Positions 4,061-14,711 of a stretch of 16,614 nt of DNA are shown here, one piece after another. The translations under genes and the position numbers were made by a program. The stretch is from IMG/VR virus record IMGVR_UViG_2778261297_000002, one strand, 5' to 3'. Below the pieces are notes generated by a model. The model had not been told where the DNA came from, did no database searches, and saw only the letters and a list, made by a program, of their open reading frames with translations. Source of the stretch: a virus. Its lineage: Duplodnaviria > Heunggongvirae > Uroviricota > Caudoviricetes. Within the stretch, counting starts at the first letter, position 1; every line of letters starts with the position of its first letter.

Positions 4061-4240
4061 TCAGCCCTTAGGCTCAATGCCGCGCTGCTGTAGTTCTTTG
4101 CGGATGATGCGCTTGATCCAAGCAGCCAGTGATTCGTCGCCATCCTGTTGTTGTGCTTGTTCCATTAGCTCACGTAGCTCGGGATCTAATCTGAACTGGA
4201 ATGGAGGATTACCACGTCTTTCATTTTTGTGTGTTGACAC
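4061..4240 (-). CDS. Ribbon-helix-helix (Arc/CopG-like) DNA-binding protein, candidate repressor
   Basis: Hand translation: (V)STHKNERRGNPPFQFRLDPELRELMEQAQQQDGDESLAAWIKRIIRKELQQRGIEPKG, a beta-strand then two helices as in RHH regulators. Start uncertain (GTG 4240 or internal ATG 4165); several rare codons. Confidence 0.45.
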   Translation of the reverse strand: MSTHKNERRGNPPFQFRLDPELRELMEQAQQQDGDESLAAWIKRIIRKELQQRGIEPKG

Positions 4241-7987: not shown

Positions 7988-8007
7988 TTACACGTGAGGT
8001 TTATTTT

Positions 8008-8296
8008 GTTGGTTCAGTTGGTTCAGTAGGTAGTGTGTATCGTTATCGTGGTGTTTATATTGATTATTTTACACAGAAACTGAACCAACACTGAACCAAC
8101 AAATGACTGTTTTGAACCAACAAACGGGGGATTTGAACCAACATACCTACCCTGCCCGAATAAGTGTTTTTACTGAACCAACATAAAAACGGCGTTGTTG
8201 GTTCAAAACGGGGCTTTGTTGGTTCACTAAATAAAAATAAGTCTTTTAAAAACAATGTTCTTTACAAATTGAACCAACTGAACCAACTGAACCAAC
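8008..8296. repeat. Replication-origin-like iteron array
   Basis: 12 copies of the 9-mer TGAACCAAC: 8 forward (8081, 8092, 8113, 8134, 8174, 8270, 8279, 8288) and 4 inverted (8008, 8017, 8198, 8218), with an AT-rich stretch at about 8227-8269. Confidence 0.8.
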
Positions 8297-8333
8297 ATAG
8301 TTTTGTTTATATACGCAGAAAATGAGGTGAAAA

Positions 8334-10151: not shown

Positions 10152-10450
10152 ACAGAATCACGGGCGTGATTGAGCGTAAGACGGGGAAAGCAGCCAGAGG
10201 CATTGGCCTGACTCTGTAAAAGCAAAACGCCCGCACGGGCGTCAGGGAACGGGATAGACTTCTGCGACAATTTGCATTCGCCGCCAATATAGCAAGCCGT
10301 CCACATCAAGCAATAAACTATCACCGGGAGGGGGAGGCCAAATCTCTGCAACCCTGAGCCTTAAGGACTGCCCGCCTCATCGAATGTTTATACCCGCGAA
10401 AAATAAAATTTAATCTGGGCGTGTTTCATCCTTCCAGATGGGTATGACGT

Positions 10451-10636
10451 ATGACACCACGCGAAATAGCTTTATTGACCACCGCCAAACTGGAGCACGA
10501 AGGCCACCAGCTAACCCCGGCAGATCAACGGGAGATAGAACGCTCAGTTAATGCCGATATAGCCCGGCGTGACAAATTCCGCGAAATGATGCGATCACCT
10601 GCCTACCAGTGGAAGAAGCCAGCGCCGCGCAGGTAG
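10451..10636 (+). CDS. Small protein (61 aa), paralog of 14520-14711
   Basis: C-terminus MMRSPAYQWKKPAPRR parallels MTAPAYQWKRPDNPRR in the second copy, with similarity across the whole length; weak RBS. Confidence 0.45.
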   Translation: MTPREIALLTTAKLEHEGHQLTPADQREIERSVNADIARRDKFREMMRSPAYQWKKPAPRR

Positions 10637-10756
10637 ATATGGGATTATTCCACATGTAACTTATGCGTATTAAGCAAATTTCCTTTATTCACCTTTACAG
10701 AATTGTGAGTACGTCAGTATCGTTATCCTTCCGATTCGCATTTATTCAGGATTTGC

Positions 10757-11299
10757 ATGTACCAGCTAAAGATAACCATCCGAGACAGCAAGCCACCTAT
10801 ATGGCGGCGTGTGCTGGTTCCAGAGCAAATCCCCTTTAGTGAACTTCACGCGGTGATCCAGTTGGCTTTTGGCTGGAATGACGAACACCTGTATATGTTC
10901 GAGAAAGGGCGTAAAGGTGATCCCGGTAGCGAGTATCGCGTATGGGGTGAGGATGAAAGCATGGGTAATGCGGCAATCACACCACTATGGGCAGCGCTCC
11001 AGAATGAGGGTGACAGGCTGGTTTACACGTATGACTTTGGCGACTGGTGGGATTGCCTTATTGTGCTGGAGAAGCAAACACACGATACGAGCAATCAGCC
11101 CATTAGCTGCCTGCGTGGGAAAGGCACCACCCCGGCGGAAAACTCAGGCGGCTTGCATGGTTACAATGAATTGCTATTACAGGCCAGAGAGTCTGATAAT
11201 CCTGAGCAGGCCGAGATCCACAATTTCCTGATGCTGGATATTGAACGCCGGGTTTACGACCTGAGCCGCATCAACGACAGATTGCAGGCTATTAACTGA
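10757..11299 (+). CDS. pRiA4b ORF-3-like family protein (180 aa)
   Basis: YQLKITIRDSKPPIWRRVLVP...ELHAVIQLAFGWNDEHLYMF...YTYDFGDWWDCLIVLE matches the conserved pattern of that family (recognised from memory). Confidence 0.65.
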   Translation: MYQLKITIRDSKPPIWRRVLVPEQIPFSELHAVIQLAFGWNDEHLYMFEKGRKGDPGSEYRVWGEDESMGNAAITPLWAALQNEGDRLVYTYDFGDWWDCLIVLEKQTHDTSNQPISCLRGKGTTPAENSGGLHGYNELLLQARESDNPEQAEIHNFLMLDIERRVYDLSRINDRLQAIN

Positions 11300-11876: not shown

Positions 11877-12053
11877 ATGGCAGTCACTAACAAAAAGCCG
11901 ATTCTTGTTGATCAGCCGATTCTCGAAGGGTTACAGCGCCTCCGGGATGATGAATGCCGACGTTCTACCGTAGGCGCAGCCCCAAGCATTCAGGAGCTGG
12001 CGCGTCACCTTTTGCGCCAGGGTATCCACCGGCATGAGGCGGGCAAGAAGTAA
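11877..12053 (+). CDS. Small protein (58 aa), possible RHH-like regulator; first gene of four-gene operon
   Basis: AGGAGG at 11864-11869. Sequence MAVTNKKPILVDQPILEGLQRLRDDECRRSTVGAAPSIQELARHLLRQGIHRHEAGKK has a strand-helix-helix pattern. TTGACG-type promoter candidate at about 11796-11825. Confidence 0.45.
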   Translation: MAVTNKKPILVDQPILEGLQRLRDDECRRSTVGAAPSIQELARHLLRQGIHRHEAGKK

Positions 12054-12079
12054 CTCTGCTGCCCGGAAAGGAGAAACCA

Positions 12080-12856
12080 ATGCCGTTAATGAAATTACCC
12101 ACATGGGCGCTAACAGCGTTCGGTACGAAAGGTAAGAAAAAACAGCCCCAACTATCTGAGGAAAACCCATCCATGTTTGATTTCTCGCATCTGTCAGGCA
12201 AAACCAAAACGAAAGGCGAGTCCGATAACGGTAATGAGCCACTGAAACAGGATAGTGACGATATTCAGGTATATCGCCCAAACAAGCACAGTCGTGGTCA
12301 CAATGTCGCGGTGTCTACTGAGGCTAAGAACAACCCGGTTCTGGCTGTTCGTTTGCTGAAAGAAACAAAGCTTTCATCGAAGAAAATAAAGCAGCAACTG
12401 GCATCGTCGCCGATGGCGCTTTCTGTGTTTACCCAGAAATTTATGGAAGAGAACGATCCGACCTGGGAGTTTCAGGACGACGAAGAGAAAGCCCGAACGG
12501 CGCTGATGTTTTCAACGCAGAACCGTGACGCAAATGGTTACAGCGCTGCCCAGAGTAGCGCTATCAAGGCATTGAAAAAAATGGAAGAGCCTCTGACAGA
12601 GGATGAGGTCAAGGCATTAGCCAACATGACATTGAAGATGCAAAACGAGTACGACCCGATGTCACCTGACAATGTCAATGCTCGCCGCATAGCGGATGAG
12701 GAGTACCGGGAGGAAGTGGCACAGGCCACAGCACGCCGCAATGATCGTATCCGGGCATCTGGTGTGAGCCTGCCGGGAGATACCCGTCGCGTGAATGGCA
12801 AGATTGAAGGGCCAGCAGGCGAAGCCGAACGCCTTAAATCACAGGTTTCTCTCTGA
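12080..12856 (+). CDS. Hypothetical protein (258 aa), paralog of 12865-13359
   Basis: AAGGAG 7 nt upstream. Shares EAKNNPVLAVRLL and DPTWEF...DANGYSAAQSSAIKALKKMEEPLTEDEV with the downstream gene. Confidence 0.7.
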   Translation: MPLMKLPTWALTAFGTKGKKKQPQLSEENPSMFDFSHLSGKTKTKGESDNGNEPLKQDSDDIQVYRPNKHSRGHNVAVSTEAKNNPVLAVRLLKETKLSSKKIKQQLASSPMALSVFTQKFMEENDPTWEFQDDEEKARTALMFSTQNRDANGYSAAQSSAIKALKKMEEPLTEDEVKALANMTLKMQNEYDPMSPDNVNARRIADEEYREEVAQATARRNDRIRASGVSLPGDTRRVNGKIEGPAGEAERLKSQVSL

Positions 12857-12864
12857 GAGGTGCG

Positions 12865-13359
12865 GTGGTGAGCATTATGAACTTTCAGCATCTCAATCCG
12901 CCGCAGCCCGATGCGCAGGCATATGGCTTTTCCGGGCGCCGTATGCAGCGCATGCATCGACTTCAGCAGTCTGTTGAAGACGAGCAACCCCCTGAACGTC
13001 GCCATTCTGATGCACATCTGATCGCGGTGAGAAAAGAGGCCAAACAAAACCCGATACAGGCACTTCATCTTATCGCTGAAGGGATACCACACCAGCGTGC
13101 CATCGCCTTACTGCAGGGCAGCGTTCGGCAGCTCAGTCGTTTTACCCGTCGGGCCATGGAGAAAGCCTATCCTGGCTGGGAACTCCTTGATGCCGAAGAC
13201 CAGAACATGGCGGCATTCCAGCACAGCATGATTAACGGCGACACCAACGGCTATCGGGCTGGTTTTAACGCTGCTCTGTCGGCGCTGGAGAAGTTTGTAG
13301 AGCCAGTTACGTTTGACGATATCGTGAATAGCGTTAATTCGCTGGTGGAGGAAGTATGA
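12865..13359 (+). CDS. Hypothetical protein (about 160 aa), paralog of 12080-12856
   Basis: EAKQNPIQALHLI and YPGWEL...DTNGYRAGFNAALSALEKFVEPVTFDDI parallel the upstream gene. Start ambiguous (GTG 12865, GTG 12868 or ATG 12877). Confidence 0.65.
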   Translation: MVSIMNFQHLNPPQPDAQAYGFSGRRMQRMHRLQQSVEDEQPPERRHSDAHLIAVRKEAKQNPIQALHLIAEGIPHQRAIALLQGSVRQLSRFTRRAMEKAYPGWELLDAEDQNMAAFQHSMINGDTNGYRAGFNAALSALEKFVEPVTFDDIVNSVNSLVEEV

Positions 13360-13535
13360 GTAATTCATTCGATTTTGAGCTGGTTGCTGATGACAGGGCC
13401 AGTGCTGCCATTGACGACATTAATGAGGCTATTCGCAATCTTGGACCGCATCTGGAGAAGACGCGGGAAAGCCTCAGGCTGGGCGGCCTTCCGCCGTCGC
13501 CTTACAAAAATGGGTCCTTCCTGAGCCTTTTGTAA
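13356..13535 (+). CDS. Small acidic protein (59 aa), last gene of operon
   Basis: ATGA overlap with the upstream stop at 13356-13359; hand translation MSNSFDFELVADDRASAAIDDINEAIRNLGPHLEKTRESLRLGGLPPSPYKNGSFLSLL. Confidence 0.4.
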   Translation: MSNSFDFELVADDRASAAIDDINEAIRNLGPHLEKTRESLRLGGLPPSPYKNGSFLSLL

Positions 13536-13586
13536 GGCACGGGCATTGCGCGCCGCGGTGTTTTCCTAGCTACAGGTTTTGAATTT

Positions 13587-13792
13587 GATTGACACTTTAC
13601 ACTAAGGTTTTTCCGGTTGCTGGGTTGTTAACTCCCTTGAGCGGCAAGGGATTACCGGGAATAACCGCCGATCCTGATTGACAGTTAGATTGACACTTTC
13701 TGCCTGAAAAGTGTCAACCGGACAGAAAAAGTGTCAAGTAGCTGGCGCTTTACAGTTTGATTGACAGTTTCCCGCCGGTGGGTTGACACATT
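13587..13792. repeat. Array of 7 TTGACA(C/G) motifs in both orientations upstream of the 13826 gene
   Basis: Forward copies at 13589, 13678, 13690, 13761, 13783; inverted at 13711 and 13731. Includes the palindrome TTGACACTTT-ctgcctg-AAAGTGTCAA. Confidence 0.6.
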
Positions 13793-13825
13793 GCCTGCCA
13801 ATGATAATTACCCAGGAGAAAAAAT

Positions 13826-14413
13826 ATGTCGCTGATGAGTGTGAGTCAGTACGCTAAACACGCAGGGCTAAGTCGTCAGGCCCTCTACAACTGGGAGGCT
13901 AAGCAAGGTTTCCCCGCACGAGTGGACGGCAAGATTGACCAACTGGCCTGTGATGCCTACCTGGCCCGATACCGCAGCGCCAGTGACCCGCGCACGAAGA
14001 ATGCCAGGGGGAAAACCAAATCTGCTCCAGCCGGTCAGGCGCAGGGGAGTGCGCTGGTGGAAATGAGTGTTGCGGAGATTAAGCGCATCATAGTGTCAGG
14101 TGCCGGTAAGGTGGCCGGGATGGATCCGGACGAACGAGCCCAACTGGCTGCAAAGGCCGTAGAGCTGTTTGTAAGCGAAGGGCCTTATAACCCTCCTGTA
14201 ACGTTCGGCGGCTACCGGCTGTCGATTGTTGAAACGCCAGATGTTGAAATCGGGCAGATCATCGCGGGCGGCGCGTTCGGCCTGTCTGCATATGATGTGA
14301 TTTACGAGTGCCGGGATTACACCCTGACTCTCATGAGCGATGAAACCGAAGAAACAGCCATGCGGAGAGTGATCCCTTCGTTGCTGTATGCCCTGGCCGA
14401 CGATACCGACTAA
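13826..14413 (+). CDS. HTH-containing protein (195 aa), N-terminal MerR/Nu1-like helix-turn-helix
   Basis: N-terminus SVSQYAKHAGLSRQALYNWEAKQGFP looks like a phage HTH; AGGAG 7 nt upstream; strong terminator downstream. Confidence 0.65.
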   Translation: MSLMSVSQYAKHAGLSRQALYNWEAKQGFPARVDGKIDQLACDAYLARYRSASDPRTKNARGKTKSAPAGQAQGSALVEMSVAEIKRIIVSGAGKVAGMDPDERAQLAAKAVELFVSEGPYNPPVTFGGYRLSIVETPDVEIGQIIAGGAFGLSAYDVIYECRDYTLTLMSDETEETAMRRVIPSLLYALADDTD

Positions 14414-14443
14414 AGCAAAGTGTGCCAGCGGGCTCCTGTTATT

Positions 14444-14469
14444 CCAGCCCTCCGGGGCTGGCTTTTTAT
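14444..14469 (+). terminator. Rho-independent terminator
   Basis: CCAGCCC-tccg-GGGCTGG followed by CTTTTTAT. Confidence 0.65.
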
Positions 14470-14519
14470 AACGATGCTCAGGGCGTAGCCGGTGAGCCTA
14501 TAGAGCAGGAAGATATAGC

Positions 14520-14711
14520 GTGTTAAAACAGAAGAAAATCGAGGCGGTAATTGAAGAGCTGGCCCGCCTGCAGGGGAATGAGCTGAATGCCACCGATATG
14601 CTGGAGTTACGTTGCAGGGTTGCGGGAACGCTCGTTGCTAAAGAACGGCACCGCCGGAGGATGACGGCACCAGCCTACCAGTGGAAGAGGCCAGATAATC
14701 CACGTCGTTAA
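14520..14711 (+). CDS. Small protein (63 aa), paralog of 10451-10636
   Basis: GTG start with AGGA 8 nt upstream; shares the C-terminal PAYQWK(K/R)P...PRR motif; stop overlaps the convergent regulator B. Confidence 0.45.
   Translation: MLKQKKIEAVIEELARLQGNELNATDMLELRCRVAGTLVAKERHRRRMTAPAYQWKRPDNPRR

Follow-up and report, generated by a model that had tools for sequence, protein, structure and literature searches.

Repeats downstream of a lambda-type cosN in an Escherichia coli phage-inducible chromosomal island as the probable cosB of a satellite-encoded terminase-like protein

The dense array of TTGACAC motifs preceding the gene of a 195-aa protein in the window (here the whole analysed stretch of DNA, 16,614 nucleotides) is probably the private cosB of the island, built into a lambda-type cos and read by the adjacent 195-aa protein, which would steer the terminase of a helper phage. 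The initial annotation had placed two readings side by side, an operator array or a packaging-recognition site bound by the Nu1-like helix-turn-helix (HTH) protein encoded downstream. The second of them gained strong support from comparison, namely from the location of the array in the position of cosB, from its conservation and from the covariation of the repeats with residue 18 of the proposed reader; the first one obtained no specific support, and regulation could be a second role of the same site.

By its gene content and location the window is assigned to phage-inducible chromosomal islands (PICIs), being inserted between gcd and hpt. Segment 13400-14450 is 100% identical to an island found between these two genes in E. 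coli 1368KP, and Pfam and RefSeq assign to the island an integrase, an AntA/Bro gene, a DUF927 primase, PerC, a PRiA4_ORF3 protein and several unknowns, with hpt located directly beyond the 195-aa gene (13826-14413) and small ORFs. The set of integrase, Bro/AntA zone, primase with origin, late zone with cos and insertion at hpt is that of Gram-negative hpt-PICIs, and the island matches the description of such hpt-integrated elements given by Tommasini, Mageeney and Williams (bioRxiv 10.1101/2022.07.18.500453); its length of about 16.6 kb from int to hpt is well below that of a lambda-sized genome (48.5 kb). An Rfam match to int-alpA RNA (60.8 bits, gathering score 35.8) was registered at 1236-1303, right behind the integrase gene. 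The E. coli record matching the island at 100% (L001) contains at 12251-12814 a transposase fragment of ISKpn26 (IS5-like), the window counterpart of which falls at ~10280-10760, and gene offsets in this record imply ~630 bp more DNA in the ISKpn26 region than there is in the window. Two conserved genes of unknown function (258 and 164 aa) occupy 12080-13359 directly upstream of cos; their products gave no match in Pfam, PHROG or PDB, both genes are retained in related E. coli islands, and they are candidates for other helper-manipulating functions. Pfam returned nothing for the neighbours of the 195-aa gene, and PDB sequence searches with four other island ORFs were uninformative.

Between these two genes and the array the following elements are distinguished:

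13511-13574, plus strand: cosQ-cosN block of 64 nt, matched at every position by the cos of a lambdoid prophage that resides alongside the island in its E. coli strain (L028 4001-4064)
13512-13518, plus strand: cosQ-like heptamer GGGTCCT, 23 nt upstream of the putative top-strand nick by alignment with the lambda cos junction
13542-13553, plus strand: putative 12-nt cohesive end GGCATTGCGCGC within cosN, by analogy with lambda GGGCGGCGACCT

The stretch 13512-13566 of the window aligns with cosQ (GGGTCCT) and cosN of lambda, the heptamer and its 23-nt spacing to the putative nick being identical in both. The flanks of cosN are similar as well (ACG, then 12 nt, then CGCGG.TTTTC), so written in full the island sequence CACG, GGCATTGCGCGC, CGCGGTGTTTTCC aligns with TTACG, GGGCGGCGACCT, CGCGGGTTTTCGC of lambda. 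By this analogy the top strand may be nicked after 13541 and the bottom strand after 13553; the putative cohesive end is unique in the window.

In the E. coli 1368KP prophage the block, identical at 64 of 64 positions, sits between lysis genes and the series TerS-TerL(gpA)-gpW-portal. This prophage occupies ~2.658-2.667 Mb of record NZ_CM173843, its TerS and TerL being WP_000210383.1 and WP_016239512.1. The region ~13499-13587 of the window also matches unannotated DNA in about 50 other E. coli genomes, again between lysis genes and a TerS/gpA-type TerL/gpW/portal block, and such a location between lysis and head genes is the place of a lambdoid cos site. A prophage with this cos is present in all three E. 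coli genomes carrying the TTGACAC island, versus 60 of the 5426 genomes overall; the E. coli genome carrying an island variant with TTCACAC has no prophage with this cos. Island and 1368KP prophage diverge straight after the shared 64 nt. From there on TGTCCCA occurs eight times in the prophage, in both orientations (L028 4078-4225), between cosN and the gene of a 189-aa TerS; counted from the cohesive end, the first two copies lie at bp 47 and 54 and the TerS gene starts at bp 194; the island has TTGACAC/TTTACAC at bp 48/55, six further repeats and the start of the 195-aa gene at bp 285. Phage phiNP carries GGTAACA repeats in the corresponding place, and phiNP, the 1368KP prophage and lambda each have their own repeat family after cosN, followed by terS. 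Since the first repeat of the island follows cosN at the position equivalent to R3 (bp 48-57, versus bp 50-65 for R3 of lambda; PMC9026076) and 7-9 repeats precede the ATG (bp 285), the array occupies the position of cosB. When the cos-plus-array region was compared with phages by blastn, the only match was cosQ-cosN of Citrobacter phage phiNP. Within the phage group of the candidate helper each variant of the TerS DNA-binding domain seems to have its own repeat. Two side observations concern the surroundings of cosQ. A perfect hairpin with 11-bp arms (GCCTTACAAAA/TTTTGTAAGGC, 13499-13538) holds the cosQ heptamer in its loop; it is retained in close relatives, partly in the helper prophage, and is absent from distant loci. 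A 59-aa ORF (13356-13535), the 3′ end of which runs into cosQ, gave a match to phage tape-measure proteins over their first 44 residues (phrog_2276, E 1e-9) and seems to be a remnant of late-gene DNA captured from a helper.

The array itself is composed of four groups of repeats:

13587-13602, plus strand: first repeat GATTGACACTTT and an overlapping degenerate TTTACAC, the heptamers starting at bp 48 and 55 from base 1 of the cohesive end
13676-13699, plus strand: tandem pair GATTGACAGTTA and GATTGACACTTT, 12 bp apart, a pair that relatives also have at -150 and -138 with respect to the ATG
13708-13739, minus strand: two repeats in inverted orientation, GGTTGACACTTT (13708-13719) and ACTTGACACTTT (13728-13739)
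13747-13792, plus strand: three direct repeats, GCTTTACAGTTT (13747-13758), GATTGACAGTTT (13759-13770) and GGTTGACACATT (13781-13792)

Exact search of the window located TTGACA(C/G) on the plus strand at 13589, 13678, 13690, 13761 and 13783 and on the minus strand at 13711 and 13731, which reproduces the seven copies in both orientations initially described and confines them to 201 bp (13589-13789). The palindrome with 10-bp arms reported at the same time is present as well, the repeat 13708-13719 being paired with 13690-13699 (TTGACACTTT at 13690-13699 and AAAGTGTCAA at 13708-13717, 8 nt apart). The full repeat unit is longer than the heptamer and represents a ~12-mer, GATTGACACTTT, found in seven copies with 0-2 mismatches; an eighth, degenerate copy is GCTTTACAGTTT, and TTTACAC at 13596-13602 abuts or overlaps the first copy of the array. 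Among 2000 shuffles of the window by a first-order Markov model the largest cluster did not exceed 3 copies per 210 bp versus 7 observed (Poisson P ~1e-13 for seven copies in the array), and chance accumulation of TTGACA is thus excluded. Outside the array only two copies were found, at 4234 and 7877, with 3.8 expected for the whole window. The former, originally given as 4233-4239 and in fact covering 4234-4240, had been linked to the promoter of the primase operon; this link did not hold, since a copy with 3 mismatches to the 12-mer, no promoter called at it by the scan and fewer non-array copies than expected is consistent with chance. Centres of the six proximal strong sites are spaced at ~0, 1.1, 3.1, 5.0, 7.9 and 10.0 helical turns, and this near-integral spacing puts them roughly on one face of the helix, which, by our own inference, is compatible with DNA wrapped on an oligomer. 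A scan with the IHF consensus gave no match in 13603-13675, within the 77-bp gap after the first repeat, and a single match with 1 mismatch at 13750-13762, which is the chance level for the window without any enrichment.

The region downstream of the array contains the gene of the proposed reader and a possible end of its transcript:

13826-14413, plus strand: gene of the 195-aa protein, with an N-terminal TerS/Nu1-type winged HTH and an orphan alpha/beta C-terminal domain
14444-14461, plus strand: hairpin resembling an intrinsic terminator, the sole one called in 13300-14600

In the AlphaFold model of the protein (pLDDT 74) residues 1-57 are folded as a winged HTH (helices 6-12 and 17-24, wing strand 36-38, helix 39-47), where helix 17-24 with Gln18 is predicted to be the recognition helix; a disordered linker (58-74) connects them to an alpha/beta domain (78-190). 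Residues 1-73 match PHROG 57 (phrog_57, "terminase small subunit") with E 1.9e-9, and residues 1-60 are 38-42% identical to prophage TerS proteins, including 42% to the DNA-binding domain of the resident prophage TerS; BLASTP against prophage TerS gave E from 1e-11 to 9e-14, the similarity ending by ~aa 60-94. The best fold matches of the model are TerS DNA-binding domains, RppC and lambda TerS, all of them over the N-terminal domain. Pfam had no match for the protein, PDB sequence searches with it and with the family profile found no informative relative, phmmer against RppC chains of PDB gave no match (E up to 1, and up to 10 for the family profile), and tblastn of the DNA-binding domain returned nothing from 50,697 phage records. 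For the C-terminal domain (aa 75-195, 14048-14413) no PDB fold match was obtained, and the search among 1.84 billion representative proteins retrieved 12 representatives, all from its own family; as the domain has no detectable relative, any connection of it with TerS or TerL is guesswork.

In a multiple alignment bridged by intermediate TerS proteins, residue 18 coincides with R17 of lambda Nu1 in the alpha-2 recognition helix (residues 17-24), an equivalence based on alignment only, as direct BLASTP comparison with lambda Nu1 was not significant. The same position adjoins that of R21 and T22 in RppA, where the R21A T22A mutation abolished recognition of cos1 (PMC6739421). In sequence the DNA-binding domain is closest to TerS proteins that have a gpA-type TerL after them. 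In one genuine phage locus (L024) the TerS combines a DNA-binding domain of the island type with a C-terminal half of the prophage TerS type, and over its full length it is 48% identical to the true TerS of the 1368KP prophage (L028), both being followed by gpA-type TerL; such a makeup implies that the DNA-binding domain is a TerS module fused in islands to a different C-terminal domain. The C-terminal region by which Nu1-type proteins oligomerise and bind TerL is absent, and downstream there are small ORFs and then hpt instead of terL, so that the 195-aa protein is not a full TerS. The scan for sigma-70 promoters called no site within 13300-14600, and as neither a promoter nor a terminator was called to separate the co-oriented genes upstream (11877-13535) from the ATG, transcription can read through cos into the gene.

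Database search revealed 119 members of the 195-aa family across Enterobacterales, all of them unnamed apart from one source label "MerR regulator" (P0014), and the correspondence between protein and repeats was followed in 24 loci with upstream DNA from many genera of this order (L023 of Moellerella, with its decayed gene fragment, is uninformative). The motif search across related islands, proposed at the outset as a check, revealed an array conserved in position: it is present in 24 of 24 loci, those with TTGACAC having matching offsets from the ATG, and the same offsets are kept in Raoultella, Morganella, Edaphovirga, Rahnella, Hafnia, Brenneria, Serratia, Lelliottia and Salmonella. Twenty aligned loci plus L030-L032 were confirmed to contain the cosQ-cosN block and TTTTGAATTTGATTnACAC, TGGGTCC of cosQ being invariant in 20 related loci; in L033 (Salmonella) neither cosQ nor cosN was found in the 330 bp examined. 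The sequence of the repeats divides the loci in accordance with the recognition helix:

SRQ helix (Gln18), 13 loci: TTGACAC, with 6-10 copies of TTGACA and 0 of TTCACA
SRR helix (Arg18), 10 loci: TTCACAC, with 5-8 copies of TTCACA and 0 of TTGACA
SRT helix (Thr18), 1 locus: TTTACAC, with 4 copies of TTTACA and 2 of TTGACA

The repeat tracks residue 18 in all 24 loci with no exception, and retention of TTGACAC together with a protein of the RQAF type indicates that the variable base is tracked by residue 18 and not by residue 20. In the tree of C-terminal domains the SRR type appears at five separate places among SRQ types, and the near-isogenic L031 and L032, having nearly identical cosQ-cosN and C-terminal domains of 92% identity, possess opposite helix types and opposite arrays. 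Since the region coding for the DNA-binding domain is less than 300 bp away from the array, their co-transfer by recombination is expected. Simple linkage of this kind explains joint travel of the array and the DNA-binding domain but not the concerted change of all copies, which requires selection for a matched reader. The same module of cos, array and gene occurs in islands located elsewhere, L030 (Serratia fonticola) and L004 (E. coli 2022CK-00450); one of the sites is by fis, with P2-like baseplate genes upstream, and another by dinD/yicG. By this distribution the module moves between island backbones.

Covariation testifies to binding rather than to its purpose, and the same repeats might belong to a transcriptional operator, by means of which a MerR- or excisionase-like HTH protein regulates its own gene or the late genes of the island with no packaging role. 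The fold class is indeed common to MerR regulators and excisionases, the label given to P0014 points in this direction, and the array, including its palindrome, lies directly upstream of the gene. However, the array follows cosQ-cosN at a fixed distance with the first repeat at the R3 position, helper phages share this layout and have true TerS genes in it, the DNA-binding domain has its nearest relatives by sequence among TerS proteins with gpA-type TerL following, and the region has no promoter called; moreover, in SRR-type loci only ~20-30 nt separate the last repeat from the ATG, too little for a promoter or a -35 role. A purely regulatory array is thus considered rather improbable. Much lower is the probability that the repeats are iterons of the island replication origin bound by a replication protein. 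Short phased repeats in both orientations are typical of many origins, but the island has a separate classical field of 12 copies of TGAACCAAC (8 direct and 4 inverted, 8005-8299, 36.5% GC) directly after the DUF927 primase gene, which is probably its replication origin; once this true field had been found, the iteron identity of the array was dropped. The variable base of TTNACAC covaries with the adjacent HTH protein, and the cos-plus-array module is present also in islands with another replication module (toprim primase and SSB); comparison of TTGACAC and TTCACAC islands by replication module did not discriminate between the explanations, since both modules differ. A cluster of sigma-70 promoters, suggested by the coincidence of TTGACA with the -35 consensus and by GATAAT after the last copy, is the least credible explanation along with chance accumulation, which the shuffles exclude: no -35/-10 pair with a 16-18 nt spacer was called (GATAAT stands 14 nt from the last TTGACA), copies lie on both strands, and sister arrays carry TTCACAC or TTTACAC at the same positions, so that with the -35 consensus lost in TTCACAC arrays and no sigma-70 call the early remark about too many copies for -35 boxes proved correct.

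For the array as cosB the following course of events may be proposed. The island would have copied cosQ and cosN exactly from a lambdoid helper, making its cosN a substrate that the helper large terminase would be able to cut, and downstream of cosN the TGTCCCA repeats, presumably bound by the helper TerS, would have been replaced by 7-9 repeats of the island's own GATTGACACTTT. The 195-aa protein, probably synthesized owing to read-through from upstream co-oriented genes as in the case of lambda Nu1, would bind these repeats by its TerS-type winged HTH, residue 18 reading the third base of TTNACAC. Being bound to the array it would bring the helper terminase to the island cosN, and island concatemers would be packaged instead of, or alongside, helper DNA. 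As for the mode of TerL recruitment, residues shared with the helper TerS concentrate in alpha-3 and just after it ("ID..A.DA.L...R...DPR..NA"), and in lambda TerS the alpha-3 region forms the dimer interface of DNA-binding domains, which is mimicked by Rpp (PMC9026076). Because of this clustering we lean slightly towards an Rpp-like heteromer with the helper TerS, formed via the alpha-3 surface, over direct recruitment of TerL by the orphan domain. A more far-reaching proposal, in which the family is an undescribed class of satellite packaging specificity, with the orphan domain recruiting TerL directly and bypassing TerS, and with Gln, Arg or Thr at residue 18 versus G, C or T in the repeat making up a swappable code, is possible but seems to us less likely than its opposite.

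Comparison with known systems sets the island apart from each of them. With lambda it shares the order of cosQ, cosN, repeat array and terS-like gene, repeats in both orientations and a reader predicted to be a winged HTH; it differs by its putative 12-nt end, by 7-9 repeats of another sequence versus three R sites, by the absence of an IHF site recognised by the consensus scan where lambda has R3-I1-R2-R1 (N15 is also devoid of I1; PMC9026076), and by a protein without the Nu1-type C-terminal region and without terL behind it. The logic of redirection proposed for the island is that known from EcCICFT073-type PICIs with their Rpp and cos1 (Fillol-Salom 2019, PMC6739421; Murialdo and Feiss 2022, PMC9026076), and likewise that of the R3-PICI proposal (PMC9026076); Rpp, too, has an N-terminal TerS-like winged HTH and is further characterised by forming a heterodimer with the helper TerS and by blocking helper packaging. 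Nevertheless, RppC has no sequence similarity to the 195-aa protein; Rpp proteins are all-alpha, 135-153 aa in length, with a helical C-terminal dimerisation region (alpha3-alpha6) (PMC9026076), whereas for the 195-aa island protein the model predicts a mixed alpha/beta C-terminal domain; no repeated R sequences are reported for Rpp islands, where rpp starts near bp 102 (PMC9026076), compared to 7-9 repeats and a start at bp 285 here; and the helper of the present island belongs to another lambdoid group with another cosN. Thus, relative to Rpp-type hijacking, the multi-repeat site and the different protein family are probably novel, and the redirecting logic is known. Small terminases of SaPIs (pac-type Gram-positive PICIs) provide a parallel in the form of a satellite-encoded packaging-specificity subunit with a matching site, acting with the helper large terminase. 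TerS proteins of SaPIs are complete TerS homologues that act on a pac site in headful packaging; in contrast, the island site is cos and only the DNA-binding domain of its protein is TerS-like. In addition to their own TerS, pac SaPIs have Ppi, an inhibitor separate from it that blocks the TerS-TerL complex of the phage (PMC6739421).

It is through recognition of cosB by TerS that a cos phage selects the DNA to be packaged. In vitro the DNA binding of lambda TerS is weak and non-specific, so that genetic approaches had to be used (PMC6739421), and for the binding site of Rpp-type islands there is so far only a proposal (PMC9026076). In this respect the family represents a natural experiment, comprising a multi-copy site, three specificity variants differing in one base, one helix residue tracking them and near-isogenic pairs, and with such natural variants and the tracking residue at hand the recognition rule becomes directly testable by a single Q18R swap, a candidate helper prophage being named in the same strain as the island. 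The 195-aa proteins appear to be a second family, unrelated in sequence to Rpp, by which Gram-negative islands redirect helper packaging, and knowledge of their specificity may help to predict the islands that a given phage mobilises and to engineer transducing particles based on cos.
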